From the sequence record SRR22947727_1191: a stretch of 38,498 bases of DNA, one strand, 5' to 3'. The position numbers were made by a program, and so were the translations under genes. Positions 4,707 through 38,498 of the stretch are shown one piece after another. Within the stretch, counting starts at the first letter, position 1. Every line of letters starts with the position of its first letter. Under the pieces are notes generated by a model. That model was not told where the DNA came from. It was given only the letters and a program-made list of their open reading frames with translations, and made no database searches.

Positions 4707-5618
4707 ATGTCATTTGAAGCACTTAAGCGCCAACGCGGCGCAGATATTTCTAAACTCGTTCAAGCAGCAGAGGCCGTAGGAGCCGCTGGTGGTGAAAAGA
4801 AAAATTATGATGATGAACGCGTTTGGAAACCAACCGTAGACAAAGCAGGGAATGGATATGCCGTCCTTAGATTCCTACCAGCAGGTGAAGGATCAGACTT
4901 ACCGTGGGTCAGATATTGGGACCACGGATTCAAAGGACCAACCGGTCTTTGGTATATCGAGAACAGCCTTACATCTATTGGTCAACCTGATCCAGTTGGT
5001 GAACTCAACTCACGACTCTGGAATTCAGGACACGAAGAAGATAAAGAAACTGCACGAAAACAAAAGCGCCGACTCCACTATGTAGTCAATGCTCTTGTTG
5101 TAGAAGATCCATCTGCACCTCAAAATGAAGGTCGTGTAGTACTCTACAAATTCGGTAAGAAGATCTTTGATAAAATCATGGATGTTATGCAACCATCTTT
5201 TGCAGATGAAAAAGCAATTAATCCATTTGATTTCTGGGAAGGTGCAAACTTTAAGTTAAAGATTCGTCAAGTTGAAGGTTATCGCAACTATGATAAGTCT
5301 GAGTTTGCAAGTGGAACTGCTCTTTATGAGTCAGATGAATCAAAGCTAGAAAGTGTGTATAACCAACTGCACTCGTTAAGCGAGTTCACTGATCCTAAAA
5401 ACTATAAGACCTATGATGAGTTAAAAACTAAGCTAGCTCGAGTTCTAGGTGAAGAAGTTTCTATGGGTGCACCAACTATGAAACAAGAAATGCAAATGAA
5501 TGCTCCGGCTCCTCAGCCTGAATATTCAGTTGCAGAACCAATGACTGCCGCGGCAGTCAATATGGATAATGATGAAGATACTATGTCTTATTTCGCTAAG
5601 TTAGCAAACGAAGACTAA
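4707..5618 (+). CDS. gp32: Single-stranded DNA-binding protein gp32
   Basis: DERVWKP.VDKAGNGYAVLRFLP, YKFGKKIFDKI, NPFDFWEGANFKLK, NYDKSEF; acidic C-tail ending SYFAKLANED; ATG 4707 with RBS AAGGA. Confidence 0.97.
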   Translation: MSFEALKRQRGADISKLVQAAEAVGAAGGEKKNYDDERVWKPTVDKAGNGYAVLRFLPAGEGSDLPWVRYWDHGFKGPTGLWYIENSLTSIGQPDPVGELNSRLWNSGHEEDKETARKQKRRLHYVVNALVVEDPSAPQNEGRVVLYKFGKKIFDKIMDVMQPSFADEKAINPFDFWEGANFKLKIRQVEGYRNYDKSEFASGTALYESDESKLESVYNQLHSLSEFTDPKNYKTYDELKTKLARVLGEEVSMGAPTMKQEMQMNAPAPQPEYSVAEPMTAAAVNMDNDEDTMSYFAKLANED

Positions 5619-7228
5619 AGTATCATTGGTTCAGGATCAATTGTGTTAAGACTAGGACTACCTGCATAAGCAGAAGCATTAGTAGTTCTTACACTTTTAT
5701 CACTAGCATCCGTAACAGTAACAGGGGCCCCTCCGCCAGAAGCAGAGGTGGCCCCTGCTTTTAGATTATTTGCAATATCTTGATTTATTTTTTCAAGATC
5801 AGTCCCGATTGTACGTACAAATTCAAGCAGTGGCATATTCATTTGATCAGCTCTTGCTTTAAGACCTTCGTAATTATCTTTCAATCGGCTGCGCAACATT
5901 TTTTCTTGACGGTCTTCACTATACATTCTCAGATCATTGAAGTTCTGTTTGCCATACTTTACAGTCTCTGCTCTTTTAGCTAAAAATTCAGAGATTTTTT
6001 CTGATGTAGCAGCTGCTACTTTTTTTGCCGTATCTTCCATATCATTAGAGTCGAATTCACTCGACGATTCGTCAGGCATAAATGGTATTGGACCACGTTC
6101 TTTTCGATTTTCCGCGGCCATAAAGTTTTGACGGAATTTTCTAAGCTCGTCTAATTCAGTCTTTAGCACCTTCAGCCTTTGCATTTCATCGTCGCTAAAG
6201 TTTTCTCTATCAGTTAAAGCTTTTTTAGCTAATACATTTACTTCACTCTGTACTGCATCTTCCCGTGCTGCTTGTTCTGGATTTGCTGTTCTATATGCAG
6301 CCATTTCGTCACTAGTAGTAATAAGAGGGTCGAATATTTTATCTAAATAACTTTGAGATTGTTCAATTATATCTTTTAAGCTTTTTGATATTCTTTCTCC
6401 TAAGAGATCTACTTCTCTTTTAAATTCTGAATCATTTTTATATTTCTCAAGAAGTCTGGATGTTTCTAATCCTGTAGCTCCAAGAAAACCAATAATAGCT
6501 CCTGCAGGTCCACCTACAAGAAAGCCACCAGCTGTTGCAGCACCAATATTCAATCCACTTCTTACTGTTTCACCGGCTAGTTCATTTATGTCTTCATTAT
6601 CAATTGATTCTTTTACTTTCTTTCCTACTTCTTCGCTGTATCGATTTACTGCTCCTATAAATGCACCAGCAATCATACCCTTTGGACCAAAAAGAGAACC
6701 TAATCCAGCGCCAGTCATAGCATAACCAGACACATCTCCGGCTAATTTAGATCCTGTATATGTTTCAACTTGAGTTGCTACCTCATCAGCAAGAGTAATG
6801 AGAAGACCACCTATAAGTCCTCTTTTTAAAAGGCCACCGATACCTGGTCTCTTTGATTTTACGTTTGCATTTCCAGTAAATAAATTTTTAAGTACATTTA
6901 AGCCGAGCAAACCTCCTATTCCAGCCAAAGCAGATTTGCCCATATCACCTATTTCTTTAATGCCTAAGAAATCAAGTAAATTACCAAATAGGCCAGTTTC
7001 TTTTTGTACAGTAACAGGAGCATCTGCTTTAACAGCAGTCACTACGTTACTTCGTTCTTCTCGTTGTTTTTCTAAGTCATCAAGTTTCGGTTTTGCAAAA
7101 CCGACGAGTTTACGAATTCCAACCGAAGTTTCTTCTTGTAATTCTACAAGTTTATCTTGTTTAGAATCACTCTCTTCGAGTTTATCTCTTACGTCAGATA
7201 ATGTTGTTGGTCTACCTTTTACTGCCAT
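5615..7228 (-). CDS. Probable tail tape-measure / hub protein (gp29-like position)
   Basis: 537 aa, helical, with Gly/Ala-rich hydrophobic repeats (GAGLGSLFGP.G.IAGAFIG; GFLVGGPAGAIIG); follows the gp26/gp51-like genes. Confidence 0.6.
   Translation of the reverse strand: MAVKGRPTTLSDVRDKLEESDSKQDKLVELQEETSVGIRKLVGFAKPKLDDLEKQREERSNVVTAVKADAPVTVQKETGLFGNLLDFLGIKEIGDMGKSALAGIGGLLGLNVLKNLFTGNANVKSKRPGIGGLLKRGLIGGLLITLADEVATQVETYTGSKLAGDVSGYAMTGAGLGSLFGPKGMIAGAFIGAVNRYSEEVGKKVKESIDNEDINELAGETVRSGLNIGAATAGGFLVGGPAGAIIGFLGATGLETSRLLEKYKNDSEFKREVDLLGERISKSLKDIIEQSQSYLDKIFDPLITTSDEMAAYRTANPEQAAREDAVQSEVNVLAKKALTDRENFSDDEMQRLKVLKTELDELRKFRQNFMAAENRKERGPIPFMPDESSSEFDSNDMEDTAKKVAAATSEKISEFLAKRAETVKYGKQNFNDLRMYSEDRQEKMLRSRLKDNYEGLKARADQMNMPLLEFVRTIGTDLEKINQDIANNLKAGATSASGGGAPVTVTDASDKSVRTTNASAYAGSPSLNTIDPEPMIL
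5722..5763 (+). terminator. Intrinsic terminator-like hairpin after gene 32, inside the antisense CDS
   Basis: CAGGGGCC-CCTC...GAGG(T)GGCCCCTG stem followed by CTTTT. Confidence 0.6.
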
Positions 7229-7401
7229 TTGTTTCTAGCCTCAGCTTTTTCTTTTATATCTTCAAGTAACATAAAGATGTAAATTTCTCTCTCCCACGGC
7301 ATCATATAATCTATATCACTTAGAGAATAACTATAATTTTGCATCAATTGAAAATTAGTTTTATAATAATTCTCTAGGCTATCATGCGAGAGATTTAGGA
7401 A
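7219..7401 (-). CDS. gp51-like tail/baseplate assembly ORF, likely the -1 frameshift extension of the gp26-like gene
   Basis: Hand translation: FLNLSHDSLENYYKTNFQLMQNYSYSLSDIDYMMPWEREIYIFMLLEDIKEKAEARNKWQ*. First ATG is at 7344, inside the conserved motif. Not in ORF track. Confidence 0.75.
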   Translation of the reverse strand, partial: FLNLSHDSLENYYKTNFQLMQNYSYSLSDIDYMMPWEREIYIFMLLEDIKEKAEARNKWQ

Positions 7402-8114
7402 AAAAAATCGTCTAAGCCCTCCAAGACTTTTTTGGTTGTCTCACCACATGAGCTACATGTGTAATCTAGTTCATATTTTAATTTAGGAATGTTTTCAAGG
7501 AAAGAATTGATTTCCTTAAACTGACTATTATTTAATGAATTAATAAACGCTTCTACTTCAGCTCTTGGTTCATCGCACATCATAATGTTTTCTTCTTCTG
7601 TCATTACAGATTCCATTGACATCATCAATGTTTCATACATAATTTCAGCTGCGGTGCTTTCATCAGATATAATCACAGGGTTGTTAATAATTTCAAAATA
7701 AGAAGGATACCTCATTTGTATTGATATATCTTCTGATATACTTACAACATTATTTGTATTTGGTACATAATTAAACGATGCTTTTTCTAAGTCAACTTCA
7801 ACCTCTGTAGAATCTGAGCAGCTACTACAAATAGCATTTATCTTTGTTTTTTCACCTACAGACTTAGATCTAATTTGTGTAAACATGTAGTCTACATCAA
7901 AAGTAGATAGTTTTTTGACATCAATAGGATCATGTACACAAGATTCGATAGTGTTAAGCATTGCTGTTAGAATCTGCTGTTTATCTTGTGATTCATATGC
8001 AATAAGTAGAATTTTTTGCTCTTTAACTAGGAATGGCCTGAATTTTACTTTCTGGTCAGTCGAAGGGATATTTAATTCATACTGTGGAATATCATTCAAT
8101 TTAGGCAGTGCCAT
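7395..8114 (-). CDS. gp26: Baseplate hub assembly protein, gp26-like
   Basis: MALPKL...YELNIPS...VKFRPFLVKEQKILL, IRSKSVGE, two CxxC motifs, C-terminal LEGLDDFF. Confidence 0.85.
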   Translation of the reverse strand: MALPKLNDIPQYELNIPSTDQKVKFRPFLVKEQKILLIAYESQDKQQILTAMLNTIESCVHDPIDVKKLSTFDVDYMFTQIRSKSVGEKTKINAICSSCSDSTEVEVDLEKASFNYVPNTNNVVSISEDISIQMRYPSYFEIINNPVIISDESTAAEIMYETLMMSMESVMTEEENIMMCDEPRAEVEAFINSLNNSQFKEINSFLENIPKLKYELDYTCSSCGETTKKVLEGLDDFFS

Positions 8115-8129
8115 TATAAACTCCTTATA

Positions 8130-8795
8130 TTATGAAAATACGCTATTTAAGCCGCCAAACGCTTGTACAATACCGAGAGGACCGCCAGTACGAGTGGTCC
8201 AATTTGTATATGATAATTCAACGGAAACCTGTACTAGGCCGTCAAGTTCATTGTTTAGTTCAACTGCATTGATTGTTGTAGGAAAGGCATCGATTAGTTC
8301 TACAGAATAAATTGTAGATCCACCGATTCCTAGGTTAAGATCTATAGGACCAATATCTACTCCTAGATTAAATATTGGTTTTCTTAATTGGTGAATTTTT
8401 ACCGGTCTGACGTATTCGGCTTTATATGCTGGCTTATGTGTTTCTTCATCAATAATTCTGCTTTTCCATGAGTCAAAATATTTTCTAATACCATAGTCAT
8501 TTAGTGCATAAAATGTGAGTGATACATCTTGTACAGCATATCCGTATGCTACTTTTTGAAACTCCATTCCAATACGTCTATCAGAAGTTAAAATTTGCTT
8601 ACCTGGTAAAACGGCTTGAGCACAAAGAAGATTAAGATCTCCTCCGCCAAGAGTTCCTCCAGTTAATACGCTTGTTAGCTGACTTAGAAATCCTCCACCA
8701 GAGAATTCAGTAGGAAGATTAACTAAGAATTGGTTAGAGCGCGCAAATCCTAATTTGCTTGTAGCTAAAGATTTAAGCTGATCAATACTAGACAT
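8130..8795 (-). CDS. Tail tube-fold protein (gp54/gp19-like tube initiator)
   Basis: G.ARSNQF.V, LPG...T, FDSW...I, L.DAFPT.I....L, V.V.LSY..W tail-tube motifs. Confidence 0.7.
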   Translation of the reverse strand: MSSIDQLKSLATSKLGFARSNQFLVNLPTEFSGGGFLSQLTSVLTGGTLGGGDLNLLCAQAVLPGKQILTSDRRIGMEFQKVAYGYAVQDVSLTFYALNDYGIRKYFDSWKSRIIDEETHKPAYKAEYVRPVKIHQLRKPIFNLGVDIGPIDLNLGIGGSTIYSVELIDAFPTTINAVELNNELDGLVQVSVELSYTNWTTRTGGPLGIVQAFGGLNSVFS

Positions 8796-9384
8796 ATTTT
8801 CCTATCTTCTTCCTTGAGTCTTGATAAACCGTTGCCGCGCTTGCTCCTTGAAAATCTGCCATCGGTAAGAATGTGGCGATCTCCCATTCAGGTGCTTCAA
8901 CTCGAGCAAATCTAGATTTGACTTGACTCATTAAGTAATGCTTATAGCAAGCTTTGTAAAATCTAGTTTTTGATGTTTTCTGTAACATGCTGTAAGTAAG
9001 AGCAAATCGAGTGGATTCATCGTATTTTTTATTGTTTGTAATTTCAAGTAAACCATCTAAAAATTTTGCTCTTAATGGTAAAGGCAGATAATGAAGATTT
9101 AATCCTGAGAAACCACCGGGGGCAGGACCTACAATAATTGTAAGGGGAAACTTATCAAAATAAGGAAGCTTGTCCTTATGCTTAGCATCATAAAAAAACA
9201 TATTCATAGAACCAATCAATTGACGATTTGCAAGTCTTAATTGAGGTTCTTTCATTAATTCCAGTCTATTAGGAATTCTTAAGTTTCTTACTTTATTCAT
9301 AAACCACTGGCGTGACTCTGCACTGCGAGGAGTAATGCCTGCTCTAAATGCTTCATATTCTAGCTTTTGAAATAAATCGCTCAT
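8788..9384 (-). CDS. gp2: DNA end protector protein gp2
   Basis: F.YDAKHKDKLPYFDKFPL, GLNLHYLP...R, K.YL.S.VKSRF; adjacent to gp4. Confidence 0.9.
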   Translation of the reverse strand: MSDLFQKLEYEAFRAGITPRSAESRQWFMNKVRNLRIPNRLELMKEPQLRLANRQLIGSMNMFFYDAKHKDKLPYFDKFPLTIIVGPAPGGFSGLNLHYLPLPLRAKFLDGLLEITNNKKYDESTRFALTYSMLQKTSKTRFYKACYKHYLMSQVKSRFARVEAPEWEIATFLPMADFQGASAATVYQDSRKKIGKYV

Positions 9385-9388
9385 GCCA

Positions 9389-9889
9389 TTATTTATATGA
9401 TTTTTTAGACTTTTTGCGATAAGGTTTTAAAGGTTTCATCGGTTTTAATTTACCAGTTTCTTTTGCCATTATTCCCATAGATTGTAATGTTTTCTCTGTC
9501 CAGATCTGAAACTCCCAACCTCTATCCTTTGCATAATTATTTGCTGCTTCCCACTTATTCATATTCTTTACATATGTCAATGCTTCACTAATATATTTTT
9601 TAGTCTTGCGACCTCCAGTTGGAGGTGAGGTTTCTTTTTCTGGCTTTATCTCTACAAGCAATATTTTATCTTCAAATATTATTTTTACATCTACAAAATA
9701 ACGATGATATTTTTTATCAACTTCATAATAGTATGGAACAACCACCTCTTCTGAGCTCCAGTATTTTACACTTGGATTTTTATCACACCACATAAAAACA
9801 TATTTTTCCCACATAGAGCGATAAACGACCTTGTCTGGATCGCCTTTATACTTTTTTATCTTTGGTTTATACTTACCGGAATACGCCAT
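9389..9889 (-). CDS. gp4: Head completion nuclease gp4 (TnsA-like)
   Basis: MAYSGKY.P...KYKGD...VYRSMWE, WSSEE..VPY, HRYFVD, LVEIKP, N..KW.AA. Confidence 0.93.
   Translation of the reverse strand: MAYSGKYKPKIKKYKGDPDKVVYRSMWEKYVFMWCDKNPSVKYWSSEEVVVPYYYEVDKKYHRYFVDVKIIFEDKILLVEIKPEKETSPPTGGRKTKKYISEALTYVKNMNKWEAANNYAKDRGWEFQIWTEKTLQSMGIMAKETGKLKPMKPLKPYRKKSKKSYK
9390..9397 (-). promoter_or_regulatory. Late promoter for gene 2 (predicts a leaderless mRNA)
   Basis: TATAAATA on the minus strand, 5 nt before the gp2 ATG. Confidence 0.7.
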
Positions 9890-9896
9890 AAAACTA

Positions 9897-9904
9897 TATA
9901 AATA
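9897..9904 (+). promoter_or_regulatory. Late promoter for rightward baseplate operon
   Basis: TATAAATA upstream of gp48. Confidence 0.8.
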
Positions 9905-9923
9905 ATGAATAATGCTTTACGTT

Positions 9924-9931
9924 TATTTATA
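9924..9931 (-). promoter_or_regulatory. Late promoter for leftward gp4 operon
   Basis: TATTTATA on the plus strand equals TATAAATA on the minus strand. Confidence 0.8.
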
Positions 9932-9942
9932 GGAAATCGAGC

Positions 9943-24869: not shown

Positions 24870-27800
24870 ATGGCCATTACACTTAACAAAACTCTGTTTC
24901 CACAGCGCTATCGTGATGATTTTGCCGACAGCGATGGCTATTATCGTATTCTATTCAATAGTGGTAGAGCGCTTCAAGCTCGTGAATTAACACAGCTACA
25001 AACTATAATTCAAAACCAGATCAAAAGGTTTGGCGATAATATCTTTAAAGAAGGTGGTGTAGTTAAGCCTGGTGCTTCTGTATTGAATAACGCGTATGAG
25101 TATATTAAGCTTAATGTTACTACTTACAATCTTCCTTCAACATATAATTCTCTAATTGGTACAACTTTCACCGGTAATACCTCAGGTGTTCAAGCTAAAG
25201 TATTAGAAGTAATTCCTTCTGATGGTGTTGATCCTTCTACTCTATATGTTCAGTATCTTAATGGTCCAGCAGCAGTAGCAGGAGCTACTACTGTTAGAAT
25301 GAGTCCTACAGAAACTATGACAAATGGAACTGTTACTTTAGAAGTACAGACTACAAACACTCCTGCTAATCCAGCTACTGGTAGAGGTATTCGTTTATCT
25401 ATCGATACCGGTGTTTACTATGCGCAAGGTTTCTTTGTCTACACTGAAAAGCAATCTCTACTTATTTCTAAATATTCTGATAGCATCAATGAAGTTGTAG
25501 GCTACAAAATCACAGAGCAGACTATCAACGTAGATGACGATGGTGGTCTATATGATAACCAAGGGTTACTTCCTAATATCTCAGCACCTGGTGCTGACAG
25601 ATATAGAATTACTTTAGAGCTCGCAAAGCAAAGTGAAATTACATCAACTGATAATTTTATTCCAGTAGTAACTATCAAGAATGGCGTAGCATTTAAAGTT
25701 GTAGATACAAATTCATCTTACAATAAAATTAATGATCTGATTGCACAAAGAATTCATGAGAATTCTGGTAACTATATCGTCAATCCATTTAAAATCAGCT
25801 TTAATGAAGACTCTGCCGCTACTCATTTGCAGATGAGAGTAAGTGATGGTGTGGCTGTCATGGATGGTTATCGAGTTTCGAGAAACGTTCCTGTTACTCA
25901 GCGCATAATTAAGCCTATTACAGATTTTGAATTTAATAATCAGAAAACATCAGCAACATACGGTAACTACGTTGAAGTAGATGCATCTACTCCAGCTAAT
26001 ATGACAAGAATGCCAAATATTAACTCATTTGAGACATTAAATATTAGAACTTCTACGGGATATGGTGGATCTACTATTGGTACATGTAAACTAAGAGCAG
26101 TCTCCGAAGATGCTGGAAATCTATATAGATTCTACATTTTTGATATTCAGATGAATGCAGGTAGAAGCTTTAGAGAAGCAGTAAGCATTGGCACATCTGC
26201 AACAGTTTACTTTAATGTTTATAGACCTCTTTCAGTTGCTGAGCTAAAAGACGTTACTAAAAATACACTTCTATTCCCTATTCCAAAGAATAGACCTAAG
26301 TCAATCAGTGATATTGATTTAACAGTACAAAGAAAATTTACTATTACTTCAAGTGGTTCTGGTACATCTTCTATCTCAGTTTCAGCTACAGGTGAAACCT
26401 TTGATAATGTAAATGACTGGGTGTTTGCGGATTCCACTGGTTTCTTAAGTAGTGTATCCACTAGCGGTGCTGGAACAAATGGTGCTACATTCTCAGGTCT
26501 GCCTATATCATCTGCTACAAATGGAATTGATGTTCTTGCTTACGTTAATAAGTCACAAGGCACTGTAAGAACTAAGACAGCACAAGAAGATACAGCTACA
26601 ATTACTCCAGCAGCAGATGGATCTCTAGATCTTGGATATGCTGATGCTTATGAAATTATAAGAGTTAGAGACCAAGATTCTGATGGTGTAAATTTAAGAA
26701 ATAACTATGTTTTTGATGATGGCCAAAGAGATAATTTCTATGATAGGTCAAAGCTTCTATTAAAAACTGGATCTGCAGCTCCAGCTAGTGGTCAAGTTTT
26801 TGTAAGGTTCAAGTATTTTGAGCATGGTGCCGGCACTAATGGTGATTTCTTTGCCGTTAACTCTTACTCTGGTCAAATAGATTATAAAAACATTCCTGCA
26901 TATAGAACAGCGTCTGGTATTAACTATAATCTAAGAGAAGTTCTTGATTTTAGATCAGTAAAAGATGGTTCTGGTAATTTTGCTAATGCAGTTACTGGAG
27001 CTAGAGTACATGAGCTGCCTCAGGTAAATGACTTAATATCATCTGATATTACTGCGTATCAGCGCAGAAGAAACATTCTTACAATTGACAGAGATGGGGT
27101 CCTCTCTTTAGGAAATGGCCGATCTGGTGATTCTCCTCCTGCTCCAGATACTCCAGCAGGAACACTACCAATTTATGATATTGTGTTCGGAGGTAATACT
27201 CTTGATGAAAATGATCTAAAGGTCATTAAGATTGAACATAAAAGATATACTATGAAAGATATTGGTAGAATTGAAGACCGTATCGATAAACTTGAAGATC
27301 TTACCGCTTTAAGCTTATTAGAAATTGATACTAAAAACTTTAAAGTGTTAGACTCTGCAGGAAATGACAGAACTAAATCTGGCTTCTTTGTGGACAATTT
27401 TACTACTCAATTGTATTCTGATGTTAGACAAACAGCTTATAGAGCTTCAATTGACCCGATGGAAGGATATGTCAGACCTACATTTGTAGAAAATAACATT
27501 AGATTGATATATGATTCTGATCTTTCTTCTAATGTTGTAAAGAAAGGCGACAATATTTACCTGAAACACACTGAAGTTGTATATCAAAATCAGTCATATG
27601 CATCTCAATCTATTAGAGTTAATCCATTTGATGCAGTCTTGTATGAAGGACATGTTGACCTTTCTCCTGCATCTGATGAATGGAGAGAAACTAAAGTTAG
27701 AACTAAGAAGATTATCGATGGTGGCTCTAAACTTGATACAAGTCAAGCGACATTGTGGAATAACTGGCAGTGGAATTGGGGTGGCACAAAAATAAATGAT

Positions 27801-28517
27801 CTAAAAGTAGGTGATCAAACCAATGTAAAATCTACAACTTCTGGCAATTATCTGAATAAAAAATATAATAAAATTGTTTCAGAAGAAACAATATTAGAAG
27901 TAATTGCAGAACGGGTTGTAAACGTAGCTTTGCTTCCTTTTGCTCGGTCTAGAAAAATATATTTTAAATCACAAGGTCTTAGACCTTCATCAAAGGTCTG
28001 GTTATTCTTTGATGGAATTAGAGTCGATGACTGGGTCAGAGAAGAAACTTTCCAATTCTGCTGCGACGATCCTAAGGAGTATGGAAATATTCATGACAGA
28101 GCTACTCAACACCCAGAAGGAGCTACTGTATTAGAAACTGATCAGTACGGTGCAATTGAAGGATCTTTCTTCTTGCCTAATACTAACAATATTAGATTTA
28201 GAACAGGAACAAATGAGTTTAAGATCTTAGATATTAGTGCGGATGATGAAACTGCTACTGGATCTATAGGAAGAACTACATTTATCTCTACTGGATATTT
28301 AGATACAATTGACCAAGATATTCTTTCTACAAGATTGCTTACAGTCAAAGGACAAAGTTCTAGCCAATACATCCCTCCTTCATCAGATGGTTGGGGTGGC
28401 GGTGACGGCGGTGACGGCCATCATACTAACAACAGTAGTGCAAATTCATGTCCGGCGCCGGACGACGGAAGCCTTGGCGGGTTAGCTGATGCAGGATTCG
28501 GCGGCGGTTGGGTATAA
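24870..28517 (+). CDS. Large virion structural protein, DUF4815/VrlC-like (N-terminal part)
   Basis: Y.DDF.....YYRILF..GRALQARELTQLQT, APGADRY, RYTMKDIGRIE.RI..LE, K.GFFVDNF, L.PASD.W. Confidence 0.88.
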   Translation: MAITLNKTLFPQRYRDDFADSDGYYRILFNSGRALQARELTQLQTIIQNQIKRFGDNIFKEGGVVKPGASVLNNAYEYIKLNVTTYNLPSTYNSLIGTTFTGNTSGVQAKVLEVIPSDGVDPSTLYVQYLNGPAAVAGATTVRMSPTETMTNGTVTLEVQTTNTPANPATGRGIRLSIDTGVYYAQGFFVYTEKQSLLISKYSDSINEVVGYKITEQTINVDDDGGLYDNQGLLPNISAPGADRYRITLELAKQSEITSTDNFIPVVTIKNGVAFKVVDTNSSYNKINDLIAQRIHENSGNYIVNPFKISFNEDSAATHLQMRVSDGVAVMDGYRVSRNVPVTQRIIKPITDFEFNNQKTSATYGNYVEVDASTPANMTRMPNINSFETLNIRTSTGYGGSTIGTCKLRAVSEDAGNLYRFYIFDIQMNAGRSFREAVSIGTSATVYFNVYRPLSVAELKDVTKNTLLFPIPKNRPKSISDIDLTVQRKFTITSSGSGTSSISVSATGETFDNVNDWVFADSTGFLSSVSTSGAGTNGATFSGLPISSATNGIDVLAYVNKSQGTVRTKTAQEDTATITPAADGSLDLGYADAYEIIRVRDQDSDGVNLRNNYVFDDGQRDNFYDRSKLLLKTGSAAPASGQVFVRFKYFEHGAGTNGDFFAVNSYSGQIDYKNIPAYRTASGINYNLREVLDFRSVKDGSGNFANAVTGARVHELPQVNDLISSDITAYQRRRNILTIDRDGVLSLGNGRSGDSPPAPDTPAGTLPIYDIVFGGNTLDENDLKVIKIEHKRYTMKDIGRIEDRIDKLEDLTALSLLEIDTKNFKVLDSAGNDRTKSGFFVDNFTTQLYSDVRQTAYRASIDPMEGYVRPTFVENNIRLIYDSDLSSNVVKKGDNIYLKHTEVVYQNQSYASQSIRVNPFDAVLYEGHVDLSPASDEWRETKVRTKKIIDGGSKLDTSQATLWNNWQWNWGGTKINDLKVGDQTNVKSTTSGNYLNKKYNKIVSEETILEVIAERVVNVALLPFARSRKIYFKSQGLRPSSKVWLFFDGIRVDDWVREETFQFCCDDPKEYGNIHDRATQHPEGATVLETDQYGAIEGSFFLPNTNNIRFRTGTNEFKILDISADDETATGSIGRTTFISTGYLDTIDQDILSTRLLTVKGQSSSQYIPPSSDGWGGGDGGDGHHTNNSSANSCPAPDDGSLGGLADAGFGGGWV

Positions 28518-28529
28518 GGAGTAAAGTGA

Positions 28530-30098
28530 GTGTCTCAAAATAGTTTAGGTTATCAAAATAATTCTCATCCTTTAGCGCAGTCAATCTTTATTGATGATCC
28601 GAATGGCCTCTTTTTGACTAAAATCGACTTGTATTTTAGATCAAAAGATGCTACTCTTCCAGTTCAAGTTCATCTAAGACCTATGGTAAACGGATTTCCT
28701 TCAAATGATGTAATCGTTCCCCAGTCTACAGTGTTTGTCAATGGGCCTGATATTAATGTTTCTGATGATGCATCTGCTGAAACAGCATTTAAATTCCAAG
28801 AGCCGGTTTATCTAAAAGGATTTGTTGACTACGCTATTGTAGTGCAGTGTCAAACTTCTGATACTCAGATCTACATTGCACAAGTAGATGAGTACGTTTT
28901 AGGAACTACAGCAGCTCGAGTTAATAAGAATCCAGCTGTTGGTACTATTTTCTACTCTCAAAATGGAGCCACTTGGACACCTGCACAGAATCAGGATTTA
29001 AAATTTAGACTTCACAAAATGTCGATGACATCTACATCTGGATCGATTTATCTTAAAGCTGCTTCTTTGCCTGAAAGATTACTTCCTATAGATCCTATCT
29101 TTACAACTAATGGCTCTTCATCCGTTAGAGTTTCAGCAGAACAGGCAGGTCTTATTGTAAACGACCAAGTCACTATACGAGGTATTAATGCTGCTGTTGG
29201 TGGTATTGCCGCCTCAGCATTGAATGGAACACAAACCGTTACTGCAGTTGATTGGACAGGTTATACATTTAATGCTGCGTCTTCAGCTACATCTAATGAT
29301 CAAGGCGGTGGTGAAGGGGTATACTCCTCTCAAAATTATCCGTTCTCACACTTCTACTCTAATATTCAAATGCTGCAGCCAGTAGGAACTACATTCAGCA
29401 ATAATATTAGAACATCTCTTAGTAAGTCATATGCTGGAACTGAAACCGCATATGGTAAAGAAGTCGACTTTACTGGTACAGTGCACGGAGAAACTCAGTT
29501 CTTTACAACTGCTAGAGTTGCGATGAATGACAGCATCGGTGAAGCGAATCATGGAATCAACTTTAGCACACTAGATTACAAACTTGATATTTCGACTACT
29601 GACTCTCAAGTTACACCAATGCTCGATCTACAAAGAGCATCAATCAATCTTATTGACAATATTATCGATAAACAGGATTCTGCTTCAACAAATGGATTCA
29701 ATGTTCCTCTTAATTTTGTCAATGAAACTGATCCAAAAGATGGAAGTTCTGCAGCAAAGCACTTAACTACACCGATCACTCTCTTAGAAGATGCAGTAGG
29801 TCTTAAGATTCAACTTGCAGCTAATAGACCTTCTGGCACAGATTTCCAAGTCTACTATAGAACTTCAGAAGATGGTGTAGATATTAGAAATGTAGATTAC
29901 AAAGAAGTTACTGAAATAAGCAATAACGGTACAGATGATAACATTCTAATCTATAGAGAATATGAATACCTTGCGGGAGGTCCAGGTGGAGATCTTAATG
30001 CATTCACTACTTTCCAAATTAAAATAGTGTTTAGGTCAACAAATTCTGCACTGGTACCTCGTATTAAAGATTTAAGAGTTATAGCATTGAGCGTATAA
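28530..30098 (+). CDS. Virion structural protein, DUF4815/VrlC-like C-terminal part
   Basis: GTG start with RBS AAGGAG; PLAQS.F, G.FLT.IDLYF..KD...PV, F.SQNG.TW...Q.QDLKF, F..FQIKIV......A.VPRIKDLRVIAL. Confidence 0.85.
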   Translation: MSQNSLGYQNNSHPLAQSIFIDDPNGLFLTKIDLYFRSKDATLPVQVHLRPMVNGFPSNDVIVPQSTVFVNGPDINVSDDASAETAFKFQEPVYLKGFVDYAIVVQCQTSDTQIYIAQVDEYVLGTTAARVNKNPAVGTIFYSQNGATWTPAQNQDLKFRLHKMSMTSTSGSIYLKAASLPERLLPIDPIFTTNGSSSVRVSAEQAGLIVNDQVTIRGINAAVGGIAASALNGTQTVTAVDWTGYTFNAASSATSNDQGGGEGVYSSQNYPFSHFYSNIQMLQPVGTTFSNNIRTSLSKSYAGTETAYGKEVDFTGTVHGETQFFTTARVAMNDSIGEANHGINFSTLDYKLDISTTDSQVTPMLDLQRASINLIDNIIDKQDSASTNGFNVPLNFVNETDPKDGSSAAKHLTTPITLLEDAVGLKIQLAANRPSGTDFQVYYRTSEDGVDIRNVDYKEVTEISNNGTDDNILIYREYEYLAGGPGGDLNAFTTFQIKIVFRSTNSALVPRIKDLRVIALSV

Positions 30099-31039: not shown

Positions 31040-31047
31040 TATAAATA
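31040..31047 (+). promoter_or_regulatory. Late promoter
   Basis: Exact intergenic TATAAATA. Confidence 0.8.
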
Positions 31048-32812: not shown

Positions 32813-33283
32813 ATGAAATTGAACACAATTTATGATGAATCAAGTGCAGTATTCATCGATGAAAAAAAGACTACGATACGAGTTAATGCTATTGAGAAAA
32901 ACTTAAAAGGCGAATCAACTTTCGAAAGAATTATCGTAGTATCCCCTACACCAGTATTTGAAGAGTTTCAAAAGCAAGTATCTCTCGAACTTGTAGAAGA
33001 AAACACTAATAACTGGCTTAACTCAATCAAGGCTGAGCAAGATGAGTACTCAAAAATTCTTATCAAAAAAGTTAAGGAGGAGATCGGAGTTCAAGATGTT
33101 TCGTCGACGTTTAACCCAGCGACACTTACTCCGGAAGACATCTTTAAAATTAAGCTCCAAGCTTTTGAGATCGAGGAAGTTAAGAACTCTAAAAATCGTG
33201 AACTCAAGGCTAGGATTCGTAAAGCTGGAACCTTCATGGAAGTTTTGGCGTATACTTCGGCGTTAGTAAACTCTGAACTTTAA
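32813..33283 (+). CDS. Hypothetical protein linking fibre genes and enzyme cluster
   Basis: RBS AGGAG; F..KL.AFEIEEVK.SKNRELK.RIRKA motif; TAATG coupling to the radical SAM gene. Confidence 0.75.
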   Translation: MKLNTIYDESSAVFIDEKKTTIRVNAIEKNLKGESTFERIIVVSPTPVFEEFQKQVSLELVEENTNNWLNSIKAEQDEYSKILIKKVKEEIGVQDVSSTFNPATLTPEDIFKIKLQAFEIEEVKNSKNRELKARIRKAGTFMEVLAYTSALVNSEL

Positions 33284-34686
33284 TGTCATATCCTAGCAAG
33301 ACGTTTTGCGCCTTGCCTTGGATGCATATATCTACTAGGCCAAACGGCCATATGAGAGTATGCTGCACTGCCAATGCATCCGGTGTTCAGAACGCACAAT
33401 CCACAGATAAGACAGCAAGTGAAGCTGGAGTCCTTCGAAGAGACGATGGATTACCAGCTAATCTTGCTACGACTTCGCTAAAAGAAGCATGGAATAACTC
33501 TTACATGCGTGAAACACGTAAGGCGATGATGTCAGGAAAGCAGCCTGTTTCATGCCTAAAATGTTTTAAAGAAGAAGAATCTGGCCATAGATCTAAAAGG
33601 CAGTGGGAAACAGATAAGTGGATAAGAGAGATAGGTATTGATGACATACTGCAAGGATATGATCATGACACCGGCGAAGTTCCTCCACGTATACGCTATG
33701 TAGATCTTAGACTTGGTAGTAAATGCCAACTAGCATGTATTATGTGTAGTCCTCATGACAGTTCAGGATGGATTAAAGAACATAAAGAAGTGTGGCCACA
33801 ATTAAAAAACAGTAAATTAAAACAGACAATGGAGTGGGAAAAGGACTCTGGAAAGCTTGCTTGGTCTGGTGGTTCTTATAACTGGCATAAGAATAATCCT
33901 ATGTTTATAGAAGAATTATATGAACAGATCCCTACACTTAAACAGCTTTACTTTGCTGGCGGAGAACCTTTGATACATGACGAACACTACATACTCCTCA
34001 AAAAGATTATTGCAGATGGTTTTGCCTCGCAAATCGAACTCAGATATAATTCCAATGGTATGGAATGGAAGCCAGAACTTTTCGACCTTTGGAATAATTT
34101 CAAACGAGTCATCTTCCACTTTAGTGTTGACGCTATGGAAGATAGACTCGAATATATCAGATACCCCGCTCAGTGGTCTCACATATCAGGACAAATTCGA
34201 AGTCTTGATGAATACCCTTATGCAAACCTCACACTTACAACAGCCTACACAGTCATGGCCCTCAACATCCACCACTTGCCAGACTTCATCAAGTGGAAAC
34301 TCAAGTCAGGATTCAAGCTCCTCAACACCTTTTCTCAGGCTGGTGGAATGATTGACTGCCATTTAGCATATTGGCCACCACAACTAAATGTAAAAGCACT
34401 GCCTGAGTGGTATAAAAATGAAGTAGAACAGGTCTATGAAGAGTTTTATGATTGGCTTGATGAAAACTGGAAACTCACTGGTGCACCATCATACGAAGAA
34501 TATGATAAACATCCATATGTAAAGGATAGACTAAGAGGCTTGATTAGTTTTATGAAATCTGAAGACTGGTCTGTTAGATTATATGAGACAGCAGAGTGGT
34601 GTTACACTATGGCAGAAAAAAGGAGCCAAAATTTTGACTCCATCTTTCCTGAACTTGATTGGCTTAAATGGTATACTCAACGATAG
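33283..34686 (+). CDS. Radical SAM protein with N-terminal twitch/SPASM-like domain
   Basis: CQLACIMC (CX3CX2C), FAGGEP, YNSNG; N-terminal C.LPW.H...VCC...C..C. Confidence 0.92.
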   Translation: MSYPSKTFCALPWMHISTRPNGHMRVCCTANASGVQNAQSTDKTASEAGVLRRDDGLPANLATTSLKEAWNNSYMRETRKAMMSGKQPVSCLKCFKEEESGHRSKRQWETDKWIREIGIDDILQGYDHDTGEVPPRIRYVDLRLGSKCQLACIMCSPHDSSGWIKEHKEVWPQLKNSKLKQTMEWEKDSGKLAWSGGSYNWHKNNPMFIEELYEQIPTLKQLYFAGGEPLIHDEHYILLKKIIADGFASQIELRYNSNGMEWKPELFDLWNNFKRVIFHFSVDAMEDRLEYIRYPAQWSHISGQIRSLDEYPYANLTLTTAYTVMALNIHHLPDFIKWKLKSGFKLLNTFSQAGGMIDCHLAYWPPQLNVKALPEWYKNEVEQVYEEFYDWLDENWKLTGAPSYEEYDKHPYVKDRLRGLISFMKSEDWSVRLYETAEWCYTMAEKRSQNFDSIFPELDWLKWYTQR

Positions 34687-35345
34687 AGAACATCAATCTT
34701 TTTCTTAAATGATCCAATATACTCATTTGTTGTTTGGTGATATCTACGGCCACGTGTTGGATCACGGAAACCTACACCCATAAGAAGCAAAGGCTCTTCA
34801 TTGATACCTAAGATATTTTGTACATTTTCGCGGTGCATGCACTTACAGCAACCAGTTTGTAGACCAATAAGAGATGATGTCATGTTTACAAATCCTGCTG
34901 CAATGCCAATAGCCTGTTGTCTATCATTCTCTACGATGTCAGTCTCATCAAGCCTCTGGTCAGTATTTCTTTTATTTGTCAGCTCATGGCGTGTAAAGAC
35001 TAATAGAGTGTTAGCAAGCACCTGTGGATTAGTTCTAGCATATCCTTCAATAGGGCCTTTACCTTCAGTAAAGTATGTTTCATCATGAATAGCTTCAATA
35101 ATATCTCTATCCTGAGTAACAACAAGAGAATAGAATTGGGTATTTTGTTTTGTAGGACATTGTGTAGCAGAATGTACAATAAGTTGCAGTTGCTCAGGAC
35201 TTAGCTGACGACTTAAATCCCAGTTTCTTTGACATCGCTGTCCTTTTAGTACAGATTTATTAATGTGTTTAAAGAATTCAGGGTTATTATAGTATAAGTC
35301 TTGCTTTTGCTGTTTGATTTCAGATAGATTAGTGACTGCTGACAT
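34677..35345 (-). CDS. Nitroreductase-family (FMN-dependent) oxidoreductase
   Basis: QRCQRNWD, A..CPTKQN, GIAAG.V...S.L.GL.TGCC.C, LLMGVG. Confidence 0.8.
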   Translation of the reverse strand: MSAVTNLSEIKQQKQDLYYNNPEFFKHINKSVLKGQRCQRNWDLSRQLSPEQLQLIVHSATQCPTKQNTQFYSLVVTQDRDIIEAIHDETYFTEGKGPIEGYARTNPQVLANTLLVFTRHELTNKRNTDQRLDETDIVENDRQQAIGIAAGFVNMTSSLIGLQTGCCKCMHRENVQNILGINEEPLLLMGVGFRDPTRGRRYHQTTNEYIGSFKKKIDVLYR

Positions 35346-35372
35346 TATAATTCTCCAATAGCATTATTATCT

Positions 35373-35380
35373 TATTTATA
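35373..35380 (-). promoter_or_regulatory. Late promoter for nitroreductase gene
   Basis: TATTTATA (TATAAATA on the minus strand) 27 nt upstream of the ATG; RBS GGAG in between. Confidence 0.7.
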
Positions 35381-35405
35381 TATATTATTTTCATGGAGTA
35401 AACAA

Positions 35406-36455
35406 ATGTGGAAAGTGAATGAAATAGAGTGGATTGACCTCGAAACGACCACTTATTGCAATATCAAGTGTCCTGGTTGTCTGAGATCAAATTCTCGTTG
35501 GGCTGACAGTTTTATCAATAATGATAAAATGGACCTTGATAGAATCAAAGAGCAAATCACTCGCGATAAATTTCCTGCTTTACGTACTATCAATCTGTGC
35601 GGTAGCATCGATGAACCTATTTCTCATCCACAAATCATGGATTACGTTGATTGGGTTCTCAGCTTAGATGTATTTGTACATATTTCTACAAATGGATCAC
35701 TACGAAATGAGGATTTTTGGTTCAAATTAGGATCAAAGATGCCTCGTAGTAAAGGTGTAGGCATGGTCACGTTTGGTATAGATGGCACGGATGCTGAAAC
35801 ACATGTTAAATACCGTGTAGGCTCAGACTTTGATAAGATCATGAGAAATGCTGAAGCATTTATTGATGGTGGTGGTAGAGCACAATGGCAGATGATCTTG
35901 TTCGATTACAATGAGCACCAGGCTGAAGAAGCTCAACGTATGGCTATTGAGATGGGATTTCATAAGTTCAAGACTGTCAAATCTGCTCGTCCAAAAACAG
36001 TGATGCAACGAGAAGAGAAGATGGAATATAAAGCAGCAGAACGTGACACGCTGCCGAGTATCAAATGTAAGTATGTAGATGAGAAGAGAGTGCAAATCAA
36101 TAGCCTCGGCAATGTTATTCCATGCTGTTATGTCAATTCATATGACCTTGAATATAATACTGTGCCAAGCAAAGAGAAATATAAGAATCATATAAAATCA
36201 CTTAATAGACCGATACCAGATCCAGCTAATCCTGGAAAATACATTCAAGAGTATGCATATGACTATTTAGACGGATACGAGAAATTAGGAGGCATGCTTG
36301 CTAACAACATAGCATATAATGATATCGTTGACGTGATCGAAGGTGATTACTTTGCTATGATGCACCAGTCATGGAACACTGACAAGGCGGTCAGTATATG
36401 CAAGGACAGGTGCCAAAATAGAAGACTCGATGAGATGGACAGCACAATACTATGA
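35406..36455 (+). CDS. Radical SAM protein with C-terminal SPASM/twitch domain
   Basis: CNIKCPGC, ISTNGS, FGIDG; C-terminal C...G.V.PCC...C...C. Confidence 0.92.
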   Translation: MWKVNEIEWIDLETTTYCNIKCPGCLRSNSRWADSFINNDKMDLDRIKEQITRDKFPALRTINLCGSIDEPISHPQIMDYVDWVLSLDVFVHISTNGSLRNEDFWFKLGSKMPRSKGVGMVTFGIDGTDAETHVKYRVGSDFDKIMRNAEAFIDGGGRAQWQMILFDYNEHQAEEAQRMAIEMGFHKFKTVKSARPKTVMQREEKMEYKAAERDTLPSIKCKYVDEKRVQINSLGNVIPCCYVNSYDLEYNTVPSKEKYKNHIKSLNRPIPDPANPGKYIQEYAYDYLDGYEKLGGMLANNIAYNDIVDVIEGDYFAMMHQSWNTDKAVSICKDRCQNRRLDEMDSTIL

Positions 36456-37645
36456 AGTGTAAGAGACTATGGACTCATTTTGATTTCAAGCATGGTGGAT
36501 ATGCTCCGTGCTATCGCTTTAAGACAGCATTCTTTGACGGCGGTAAGGTGCCAGATCTTCCATCCGAATCGTTTAACTCAGAGTCATGGATACGTGCTCG
36601 TACTCAGATGATGGCAGGCATGTTTCCGCCCGAGTGTATCGACTGTAAGCTACAGGAAGAAGAAGGAGTCGAGTCATATCGTATGAGATCACTGACCGAT
36701 GAACCTGAAATACCAGAACCAGACTACACTACACCATATGCAGAGATCTATGATATTGAGATGAAGCTCAGCCGAGCATGTAACTATCGGTGTCGACACT
36801 GTGGTCCGTTCGCTAACTCAACATTTGAGAAGATAGGTGATGAGCATCCACACCTACGTGATCGACTGATGAATGACTATGATTTCAATCATCTGTACAA
36901 GAACGAGAACATCATCGACATACCGACCGAAGAAGTGATCGAGGATCTGATTCAGAATATCATACCAAATCGAGTCACTCGTATTGCTTTCAGCGGTGGT
37001 GAACCATTCTATCATCAGCGGATGTATACATTTCTCGAGCAGCTTATCGATCATCCAGACATCGACACAAGTCGTATTCTACTGACGTATAACACGAACA
37101 TGAGCATGACTCGATTCAAGAAATGGAAGCTCGAGGACCTGTGGTCTCACTTTCAACGTGTACATATCACCGTCAGCATGGATGGAACTGGAGATCTCTT
37201 TAACTATTTCCGTGAAGGTGGTGACTATCAGACGGTAGTAAATAATATTACTGAAATACTCGAGAAGTCGGACAAGATCAAGTCTCTTCTTATTGCATGC
37301 ACGACAACAGCATATCATGCCTTCTACATGAACGAGATATCGAGAGATATACAGGATCTAGTGAATGAAGTGAAAGTTTTTTATCCTCATGTCAACTGCC
37401 ATGCTCGAGCAAATTTCGTACACTGGCCCAAGGCTCTCGATGTAGTGAATCTTGCCGAGGAGACAAAGGCTCGACTCTATCAAGAGACGATCGAAGACGA
37501 CTTTACGTCTGACTTTCGTACTCGTCTGCTCTCTTCTCGTACACAACCTGAAGAGACATTTAAGGACGTAGTTCGAATACAGGACATGATACACAATCGA
37601 GACGCCTCAACTCTTGCACCAAGGATATTTGATTATGTCTATTGA
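36452..37645 (+). CDS. Radical SAM protein with N-terminal twitch-like domain
   Basis: CNYRCRHC, FSGGEP, YNTN, VSMDG; N-terminal C..LW.H...PC...C..C. Confidence 0.92.
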   Translation: MKCKRLWTHFDFKHGGYAPCYRFKTAFFDGGKVPDLPSESFNSESWIRARTQMMAGMFPPECIDCKLQEEEGVESYRMRSLTDEPEIPEPDYTTPYAEIYDIEMKLSRACNYRCRHCGPFANSTFEKIGDEHPHLRDRLMNDYDFNHLYKNENIIDIPTEEVIEDLIQNIIPNRVTRIAFSGGEPFYHQRMYTFLEQLIDHPDIDTSRILLTYNTNMSMTRFKKWKLEDLWSHFQRVHITVSMDGTGDLFNYFREGGDYQTVVNNITEILEKSDKIKSLLIACTTTAYHAFYMNEISRDIQDLVNEVKVFYPHVNCHARANFVHWPKALDVVNLAEETKARLYQETIEDDFTSDFRTRLLSSRTQPEETFKDVVRIQDMIHNRDASTLAPRIFDYVY

Positions 37646-38360
37646 GATACCGGTACTCGCCGAGAACGTGATTATGAAGCTATCGGGTGGAGCAGACAGT
37701 GCTCTTCTTTTGTGGCTCATCTGTAACGAGTGGACAAAACAAAACAAGCCTCTTCACGTATACACGATCACGGGTATACACAAGCAGAGACCGTGGCAGC
37801 CATATTATGCTCAACAAGTACTTGATTTCATGCATGAGCAGTGGCCGGATGTTCACTTTGCTCGACATGATACTCGACTCGTTGAAAATCCTGCTGATCC
37901 TCCTCTTCATCTCGATTACTCGAAGAATCAGTACGGCGAAACTCAAGAGCTCATGAAGATCGATATGATCGACGAAATCAAGCAGGATACACAGGTCTTC
38001 AATGCAATCACCTCGAATCCTCCTCTCAAGTACAAGGACTACTGGGGTATATCACCGATTATGGGAGACGTGTGGGAAAAAGGTGATCTGAAAGTGCGAG
38101 CATGGGAGACACGAGAAGAGAGAAAAGTCATCAATCAACACCATTACGACGGATTCATGGTCTGGTACTGTTCTCCATTCTTTCGGCACGACAAGAGCAC
38201 GATCATGAAACTCTATCAAGAACACGGACTTCTTCGTCATCTTCTACCACTCACAAGATCATGCGAGGGCTGGGACTACATGACAAAAAATTTCACACAG
38301 GAATGCGGACACTGCTGGTGGTGTAAGGAAAGAGAGTGGGCACTCAGTGTACTATCATAA
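37635..38360 (+). CDS. QueC-like PP-loop ATPase (7-cyano-7-deazaguanine synthase fold)
   Basis: LSGGADS PP-loop; PF...DK; TRSC...CGHCWWC.ER zinc motif; start reassigned to ATG 37635. Confidence 0.78.
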   Translation: MSIEIPVLAENVIMKLSGGADSALLLWLICNEWTKQNKPLHVYTITGIHKQRPWQPYYAQQVLDFMHEQWPDVHFARHDTRLVENPADPPLHLDYSKNQYGETQELMKIDMIDEIKQDTQVFNAITSNPPLKYKDYWGISPIMGDVWEKGDLKVRAWETREERKVINQHHYDGFMVWYCSPFFRHDKSTIMKLYQEHGLLRHLLPLTRSCEGWDYMTKNFTQECGHCWWCKEREWALSVLS

Positions 38361-38498
38361 GCTTCGACAGATACATCTCGAACCGACTCAGCTCTGTCAG
38401 GCAGCATGTCCTATGTGCGATCGTAACATGAACGGAGGACCGGTCAATCCTTATCTCAAACAGGCAGATCTCTCTCTTCAGGACATTAAAACAATATT
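38347..38498 (+). CDS. Radical SAM protein, 3'-truncated by window edge; not in ORF track
   Basis: GTG start; MYYHKLRQIHLEPTQLCQAACPMCDRN... contains CX3CX2C. Confidence 0.85.
   Translation, partial: MYYHKLRQIHLEPTQLCQAACPMCDRNMNGGPVNPYLKQADLSLQDIKTI

Follow-up and report, generated by a model that had tools for sequence, protein, structure and literature searches.

The sequence record SRR22947727_1191 provides 38,498 nucleotides (nt) of DNA (hereafter the window), a fragment of a marine T4-like (Kyanoviridae-type) myophage that ends within a cluster of radical S-adenosylmethionine (SAM) enzyme genes. The cluster belongs to an island with a core of radical SAM (rSAM) proteins carrying an N-terminal twitch domain (N-Twi), SPASM-type rSAM proteins (rS-A), a further rSAM family (rS-B) and the f3 protein family (methyltransferase/aminopropyltransferase fold), to which the lineage represented by the window adds three GT-A paralogs, a QueC-like PP-loop enzyme and a nitroreductase. 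The island is modular and widespread, and lies in the host-recognition (tail-fiber) region of marine T4-like phages. In our judgment it probably, though far from certainly, makes or decorates an unusual sugar or glycan, with the virion or the host surface as its target. Support for this reading comes from family assignments, the GT-A fold, gene co-occurrence, gene fusions and the occurrence of the same cassette within polysaccharide islands of Bdellovibrionota.

Open reading frames (ORFs) and family scans delineated four rSAM genes, three of them whole and one truncated where the window ends, along with one nitroreductase-fold and one QueC-like PP-loop gene (Table 1), in agreement with the inventory proposed in a first-pass annotation made from the letters of this DNA. 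The whole rSAM genes score 32.5, 40.3 and 40.6 bits against PF04055 (gathering cut-off 29.5 bits), and two of them also pass the curated cut-off of 170 bits of the N_Twi_rSAM model NF033640. The 349-aa rS-A protein, at 33.2 bits, is not a member of the latter family; its conserved Cys residues apart from the CX3CX2C motif include the C-terminal C221, C240, C241, C332 and C336. The 467-aa N_Twi_rSAM protein has 4766 homologs at E <= 0.001, the best 120 of which are 52-97% identical, and is the conserved core ortholog of the cassette. Four of its N-terminal cysteines (C9, C28, C91 and C94) do not vary among 15 sequences and may form an auxiliary Fe-S site; the Pfam SPASM model covers the same region (residues 9-94, 23.0 bits). 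An AlphaFold2 (AF2) model of this protein reached a mean confidence (pLDDT) of 83.8.

The PP-loop protein combines its nucleotide-binding signature with a C-X13-C-X2-C-X2-C motif, and residues S24, G26, D28, S29, C217, C231, C234 and C237 do not vary across 31 sequences. Pfam QueC matches its C-terminal part only (25.0 bits), and the nearest ESM Atlas clusters are annotated as 98-100% viral. A single-sequence search of the Protein Data Bank (PDB) returned no match for this protein, and a profile search placed Cap9 first (E 1.7e-4). For the nitroreductase-fold protein, the best PDB match is 4g8s (E 2.6e-4).

Table 1. Features of the enzyme cluster and its surroundings in the window
Feature	Coordinates	Strand	Details
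T4-type late-promoter-like motif TATAAATA	31040..31047	+	20 nt before the 222-aa DS-rich gene
p156, 156 aa	32813..33283	+	closes a conserved structural operon (522 aa, 75 aa ... 156 aa)
N_Twi_rSAM, conserved core ortholog, 467 aa	33283..34686	+	NF033640 387.8 bits; PF04055; CX3CX2C at C148/C152/C155
Terminator-like hairpin and T-run	34622..34641	-	directly after the nitroreductase stop codon
Nitroreductase-fold (flavin mononucleotide, FMN) gene, 222 aa	34677..35345	-	PF00881 30.8 bits (cut-off 23.5)
TATAAATA	35373..35380	-	28 nt upstream of the nitroreductase start codon
SPASM/twitch-type rSAM rS-A, 349 aa	35406..36455	+	PF04055 40.3 bits; partial SPASM match; C18/C22/C25
Second N_Twi_rSAM paralog, 397 aa	36452..37645	+	NF033640 217.4 bits; 25% identical to the first
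QueC-like PP-loop ATPase, virus-specific subfamily, 248 aa	37614..38360	+	SGGADS; Cys4 zinc-type motif
Second rS-A-type rSAM, N-terminus, cut by the window end	38347..38498	+	LCQAACPMC; whole gene 328 aa in contig L001

The downstream sequence was sought by an exact 41-base search, which matched nothing among viral contigs and a single contig, L001, among metagenomes. L001 is 95.1% identical to the window over 2158 overlapping nt and is a close relative carried on another molecule. As anticipated in the first-pass annotation, the cluster runs past the window edge: the fourth rSAM gene is whole in L001, where it encodes a paralog of the 349-aa rS-A protein (25% identity), and is followed by genes for a 203-aa protein without a family match, rS-B (348 aa), f3 (200 aa) and proteins of 234, 137, 184 and 190 aa. 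Beyond the 190-aa gene lie a TATAAATA-preceded 116-aa ORF, a 74-aa ORF and fiber proteins of 639 and at least 1568 aa. The two further rSAM genes of L001 score 34.5 and 52.4 bits against PF04055, and the f3 profile has spermidine synthase as its best PDB match (E 6e-4), that is, a class I methyltransferase fold.

The 234-, 184- and 190-aa proteins of L001 are paralogs that share an invariant DxD motif (D83-L84-D85). Foldseek returned 281 PDB matches at E <= 0.001 for a model of the 234-aa protein (pLDDT 79.9), with query-normalized template-modeling (TM) scores of 0.5-0.64; all those listed at ranks 1-50 are GT-A glycosyltransferases or close relatives, including LARGE1, the UGGT catalytic domain, LgtC, glycogenin, GlyE, XXYLT1 and the PBCV-1 capsid glycosyltransferase A64R. 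The model thus predicts a GT-A glycosyltransferase fold of GT8-like type. None of the three proteins matched a Pfam family except Mannosyl_trans3 at E 0.078, and they are not members of Pfam GT8 (PF01501).

Distribution of the cassette in phages and Bdellovibrionota

A single-protein query had matched nothing in viral contigs, and an alignment of the rS-A family uncovered at least 573 relatives there. We searched the best 80 of these viral loci with the cluster proteins using tblastn and detected N-Twi in 69, rS-B in 63, f3 in 52 and the PP-loop gene in 44, along with the nitroreductase in 13, the 234-aa GT-A gene in 11 and p156 in two. The GT-A gene served as a second, independent anchor and recovered 78 viral loci, among which 72 contain at least one of the three rSAM families, 72 contain f3 and 73 contain the 137-aa partner. 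The other two GT-A paralogs are present in 55 and 38 of these loci, the PP-loop gene in 15 and the nitroreductase in one. The nitroreductase is therefore an accessory gene and an occasional passenger; given this distribution and the lack of a match to any NCBIfam model of any kind, a role as an azoline oxidase (SagB/McbC type) finds no support.

The arrays are rich in paralogs. Clustering of 1617 ORFs yielded about two rS-A, three N-Twi and two rS-B genes per locus, PP-loop genes occur in one to three copies per locus, and whole viral records contain 10 to 21 NF033640 matches each. The 198-kb record G001 encodes 13 N_Twi_rSAM proteins over the cut-off, a score reached in none of 14 control genomes.

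Gene fusions connect several components. Proteins of ~950-1220 aa that join two f5 domains, a repetitive linker and f3 occur in seven loci (L012, L024-L026 and L036-L038; for example L038 3216-6548), forming a Rosetta-stone link between two otherwise unexplained parts of the cassette. An 830-aa fusion joins an rSAM domain to a PP-loop domain, the match of the latter being weak. It is one of the giant fusions observed inside arrays (L043 9092-15776; L038 15813-18305), the others being one of 1417 aa with several rSAM domains and one consisting of an 813-aa N-Twi rSAM protein with a weakly aminotransferase-like tail (E 2e-3).

Further sugar-pathway genes are present in related viral loci, including those for a carbamoyltransferase (E 7e-52) and a class IV aminotransferase (E 3e-35). 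A gene of the UDP-glucose dehydrogenase family in L033 is 46% identical to that of Bdellovibrio, and in record G003 an NDP-sugar epimerase/dehydratase gene abuts the first rSAM gene and a GT-A gene abuts the last.

The same cassette occurs outside phages. When prokaryote species were scanned with one genome each, 91 relatives of the N-Twi ortholog were identified, and 78 genome loci were kept, 62 of which bear Bdellovibrionota-type record titles by our count. Among the Bdellovibrionota members, in which the N-Twi ortholog is ~50% identical to that of the window, are complete chromosomes as well as an isolate, Bdellovibrio sp. HCB2-146. Among the 78 genome loci, rS-A is present in 56, rS-B in 58, f3 in 29 and the PP-loop gene in six, and accessory families are shared as well (g4 corresponds to viral f5, g5 to f6, the short-chain dehydrogenase/reductase (SDR)-like g8 to f14 and the carbamoyltransferase g11 to f48). 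N_Twi_rSAM proteins over the cut-off are encoded by 33 of 151 sampled Bdellovibrionota genomes, in up to 11 copies.

In these bacteria the cassette sits within nucleotide-sugar and polysaccharide islands. The 28 ORFs of a 40-kb island of HCB2-146 that are not cassette rSAM genes include five for GT2 glycosyltransferases, two for UDP-glucose/GDP-mannose dehydrogenases and two for NAD-dependent epimerases/dehydratases, together with genes for a DegT aminotransferase, a GNAT protein, a polysaccharide lyase, a fatty-acid hydroxylase and an SDR. In all three genomes checked, the ~470-aa ortholog has a GT2 gene no more than ~4 kb away.

Several arrays of phage type (L082-L087, L098, L102 and L144) are recorded under Verrucomicrobiales, Acidimicrobiaceae, Chloroflexota, Rickettsiales and other metagenome-assembled genomes (MAGs). 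Their best three are 63-65% identical to the query, and some contain a 73-aa ORF that resembles f7 (see below). These are probably phage contigs binned into bacterial MAGs.

Insertion site and expression of the island

PHROG matches at 9.9-24.9 kb of the window comprise the baseplate tail-tube cap, the gp5-type hub/lysozyme and gp6/7/8-type wedge proteins. The window phage is distant from cultured phages, sharing 40% identity in its gp6-like protein with phage C48C1 (Kyanoviridae) and 30-31% with Methylophilales phage Melnitz and cyanophages. Its DNA is present in 15 DNA runs from 14 studies, and a blastn comparison of the enzyme cluster with the phage collection gave no match.

The order of structural genes, with 1215-aa and 522-aa proteins followed by a 75-aa protein and then fiber genes, is common to the window and to C48C1, its nearest cultured relative. 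Since C48C1 has this order without the enzymes, the island is an insertion. The gene for p156, a protein that matched no family in the family scan, marks the point at which the island inserts: p156 homologs adjoin the island in 41 of the 78 GT-A-anchored viral loci, mostly on the opposite strand, and the insertion point is kept in these loci.

Three further observations concern the structural genes. A role of p156 as a tail-fiber chaperone, suggested by its position relative to C48C1, was rejected because BLASTP revealed no similarity; likewise, the 352-aa and 243-aa proteins of the window showed no BLASTP similarity to their positional counterparts in C48C1. The 1215-aa and 522-aa ORFs (24870-30098) lie in the same frame and are separated by TAA and TGA stop codons, an AAGGAG sequence and a GTG start codon. 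Together they seem to be the counterpart of a single 1661-aa gene of C48C1, which would imply a split or a fusion between relatives; this correspondence is based on PHROG, in which the 522-aa protein matches the far portion of a family of long proteins.

The cluster had initially been described as late-expressed and attached to the fiber operon. A motif search confirmed the features behind this description, namely a TAATG at 33280-33284, where the end of the p156 ORF overlaps the start of the first rSAM gene, and TATAAATA at 31040 (plus strand) and 35373 (minus strand). The former is the only plus-strand copy upstream of the cluster, and no further plus-strand copy was found between 31040 and the window end. 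The window contains seven copies (4.72 expected), a count reached in 20 of 100 shuffles and thus not above chance, of which six lie just 5' of a start codon in the correct orientation by our reading. With its own TATAAATA and a terminator-like hairpin, the nitroreductase gene forms a separate convergent unit, and the only gap among the cluster ORFs is a 60-nt divergent region (35346-35405).

Elsewhere this arrangement is not retained. Among the 41 loci with p156, the GT module is opposite to p156 in 38 and co-directional, as in the window, in three; the rSAM genes are all co-directional with p156 in 17 and all opposite in 17. Across 82 sources, TATAAATA occurs within 70 nt upstream of 10 cassette ORFs, the same number as for a reverse-complement control, and upstream of 30 other ORFs versus eight for the control. 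Late co-transcription of the first rSAM gene is plausible in the window, and from 35406 onward it is unproven. Because the orientation relative to the structural operon is not conserved, the late coupling is lineage-specific; the initial description therefore holds for the first rSAM gene of this lineage and fails for the island at large.

Short metatranscriptome contigs from three libraries map on the structural genes (28.7-33.4 kb) and on patches of the enzyme genes (33182-33393, 33624-33794, 34431-34612, 37664-37878 and 38051-38254); as they may reflect DNA carry-over and carry no timing, they neither show nor date expression, and the stretches they leave uncovered are uninformative. In one DNA run, the contigs break on both sides of the nitroreductase gene (34563-35631) while covering the rest, and no contig bridges the break, which may hint at strain-level presence or absence of this gene, although we draw no conclusion from it. 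Farther upstream, two TATAAATA copies facing apart (9897, plus strand; 9924, minus strand; within 9890-9942) constitute a divergent late-promoter-like pair that separates a minus-strand block (5615-9889) from the plus-strand baseplate genes.

The changing orientation of the island and the absence of late-promoter enrichment would suit an auxiliary metabolic island, devoted to a lipid, a cofactor or a secondary metabolite and unrelated to glycans or to the virion, that has lodged in a recombination-prone region. Indeed, passages of a published survey (PMC7029224) describe this region as a hypervariable island that gathers auxiliary genes; genes for a fatty-acid desaturase, TauD and a B12-dependent rSAM protein flank related loci, and the best PDB profile match of rS-A is the lipid-modifying rSAM enzyme GDGT-MAS (E 4.4e-6). 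We nevertheless regard such an island as unlikely in view of its tight linkage to GT-A genes, as seen from the independent anchor, of the GT2 and nucleotide-sugar genes beside the cassette in Bdellovibrionota and of the insertion point marked by p156.

Possible substrates of the island enzymes

A sugar or glycan tailoring island would operate as follows. The rSAM enzymes would perform radical C-H chemistry on a nucleotide-sugar or glycan intermediate, with epimerization, dehydration, C-methylation or C-C coupling as candidate reactions; the PP-loop enzyme would adenylate a carboxylate (such as that of a uronic acid) and amidate it; f3 would transfer a SAM-derived group; and the GT-A enzymes would move the product onto an acceptor, either a virion protein or the host envelope.

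A number of observations weigh against this proposal. No island enzyme has a characterized close relative, and the substrate is deduced from context only. Pfam GT2 and GT8 (PF01501) were each detected in none of four large viral records, and the GT-A family of the window lineage is present in two of these records (abutting an array in one) and is infrequent in rS-A-anchored loci. Genes for Asp/Asn beta-hydroxylase, TauD, fatty-acid desaturase and B12-dependent rSAM proteins in related loci fit protein or lipid substrates, and the use of the cassette by phages could differ from that suggested by the bacterial context. Furthermore, SkfB and CteB, which mature ribosomally synthesized and post-translationally modified peptides (RiPPs), top the Foldseek list of the N-Twi model. 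As a separate observation, f5 (g4 in bacteria) was considered as a glycosyltransferase on the basis of motif likeness only and was rejected, since neither a PDB profile search nor an hhalign comparison with the GT-A alignment gave a positive result.

Many SPASM/twitch rSAM enzymes are peptide maturases, and the first-pass annotation had proposed a RiPP-like pathway. According to this explanation, the rSAM enzymes would act with the PP-loop enzyme and the flavoprotein to introduce crosslinks, epimerizations or amide links into virion proteins or a late RiPP-like peptide. SkfB, CteB, YydG and ChlB are among the best Foldseek and PDB-sequence matches of the rSAM proteins; in the N-Twi list, however, SkfB and CteB are closely followed by BlsE, DesII and MoaA, and with TM scores of ~0.3 they appear to reflect the generic rSAM core only. 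Overall, sequence and fold searches with the rSAM enzymes yielded generic rSAM-core matches that name no substrate. Cap9, the best PDB profile match of the PP-loop protein, belongs to the QueC family, whose enzymes can modify proteins according to a preprint. Structural genes surround the cluster, with the first rSAM gene TAATG-coupled to them, and the Asp/Asn beta-hydroxylase genes of related loci would also suit a protein target.

The features expected of peptide maturation are nonetheless scarce. The cluster ORFs abut or overlap and leave no space for a short precursor ORF, and no PqqD- or RiPP recognition element (RRE)-type Pfam or NCBIfam match was obtained at E <= 0.1 for seven window and ten L001 proteins, although a very divergent RRE is possible. 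The CX3CX2C motif lies ~18 residues from the N-terminus in rS-A and its paralog and ~39 in rS-B, which leaves no room for a recognition domain. No YcaO-like match appeared among the cluster proteins in Pfam scans of the window and L001. The array head of 18 of 82 sources does carry f7, a helical ORF of 74 aa that is well conserved and immediately precedes the first rS-A gene (for example L037 7610-7834); it matched no family and could be taken for a precursor; f7 is conserved over its full length, unlike a leader followed by a variable core, and is absent from the window lineage.

The DS-rich proteins encoded just upstream of the cluster had been put forward as possible substrates. None of the 80 loci has a homolog of either the 243-aa or the 222-aa protein, and among the 78 loci one of the two has a single homolog and the other none; homologs of the 352-aa protein occur in 0 of 80 and 5 of 78, and DS-motif-rich ORFs in 1 of 80 and 2 of 78. 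The DS-rich fiber proteins are thus not co-inherited with the cassette and are ruled out as its conserved partner. With neither a precursor gene, a recognition domain nor a link to DS-rich proteins, and with the Bdellovibrionota cassette located in polysaccharide islands, we consider peptide or protein maturation decidedly unlikely. The accompanying idea that the cluster builds a virion-attached moiety survives in the form of a glycan.

The PP-loop protein and its zinc-type motif also raise the prospect that the QueC-like and rSAM enzymes make a 7-deazapurine-like or otherwise hypermodified base, or a DNA sugar placed by the GT-A enzymes, that protects phage DNA. Weak QueE/viperin-type matches of rS-B (TIGR03365, E 3e-4; NF038283, E 7.7e-11) would agree with it, both being far below the cut-off. 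The CP220 group of phages has 7-deazaguanine DNA, and rS-A has 27%-identical relatives in Campylobacter phage CP220. PTPS/QueD-like genes are present in two of four related viral records, but they lie far from the arrays (G003:C1:145449-145865 and G004:C1:36816-37241), and no TGT/DpdA gene was detected in any of the four records by a search that was positive in 14 of 14 controls and did not include FolE. The PP-loop protein scores 19.1 bits against the QueC model TIGR00364 (cut-off 150.3), and its gene, in one to three copies, is confined to 44 of 80 and 15 of 78 loci. Considering in addition the polysaccharide context in Bdellovibrionota and the location of the island in the fiber region, outside the replication module, nucleic-acid modification is in our view very improbable.

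We therefore retain sugar or glycan tailoring as the favored function. A more specific and tentative version, rather doubtful in its full form, is virion glycosylation: the rSAM set would build an unusual sugar, the three GT-A enzymes would attach it to fiber or other virion proteins, turnover of rSAM paralogs would diversify the glycan as an arms-race trait, and the same enzymology would decorate the surface of Bdellovibrionota. If so, two unrelated predators of Gram-negative cells would share a chemistry of surface camouflage or recognition.

Relation to known systems

This kind of cassette is already on record, and the island of the window is a further member of it. Passages of PMC7029224 report that pelagimyophages and cyanomyophages have rSAM cassettes, together with glycosyltransferases, in their 'host recognition cluster', and a passage of PMC5332604 mentions a T4-like environmental genome with 12 rSAM genes. 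These cassettes appear to agree with ours in place (a hypervariable island after the baseplate genes, among fiber genes and glycosyltransferases), in phage type and in habitat; the passages, supplements aside, note them without family, partners or function. In the window, baseplate gp5/6/7/8-type genes lie upstream, and the structural genes that follow have the order of C48C1; the 1215-aa protein may represent the VrlC-type gene after which the host recognition cluster is placed, and gp14 lies outside the available sequence. A full-text literature search found no paper that assigns a function to such rSAM arrays, in line with the first-pass view of an uncharacterized system, and the term 'radical SAM' occurs zero times in a survey of the QueC family (PMC13329287).

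An N-terminal Cys-rich domain and a CX3CX2C motif connect the two N_Twi_rSAM proteins of the window with NF033640 ('twitch domain-containing radical SAM protein'), a catalogued sequence model for a family without a tested function. With QueC, Cap9 and QatC (PF06508), the PP-loop protein has in common SGGxDS and, toward the C-terminus, a Cys4 motif with E-R after it, a likeness that makes carboxylate adenylation likely; it differs from QueC in failing the equivalog model and in lacking the pathway partner TGT/DpdA in the four related viral records. The RiPP maturases SkfB, CteB and SuiB have in common with the island enzymes the rSAM core and auxiliary Fe-S cysteine motifs, whereas the auxiliary domain of N-Twi is N-terminal and the island contains no RRE, precursor gene, peptidase or transporter. 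The CP220 relatives of rS-A, located by tblastn at 27% identity over 68% of the protein at three places per record, belong to another host, phage lineage and gene neighborhood, and we know of no function for them.

These arrays are among the largest known concentrations of rSAM genes in any virus, as exemplified by G001, and are very common in seawater, yet no member has a known reaction. Identification of the product would add to radical enzymology and account for much of what varies in the host-recognition region of these abundant marine phages.

Another parallel is provided by the Bdellovibrionota islands, which share with the phage island the ~50% identical ~470-aa N-Twi protein, rS-A, rS-B, f3, f5/g4, the carbamoyltransferase and the SDR-like gene. 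They differ in encoding GT2 enzymes and full sets of nucleotide-sugar genes where the phage island encodes small GT-A paralogs of GT8-like fold, and in the rarity of the PP-loop gene (6 of 78 genome loci), which is common in phage arrays. The phages are uncultured, but Bdellovibrio isolates with the same cassette are in culture and make its chemistry experimentally accessible.

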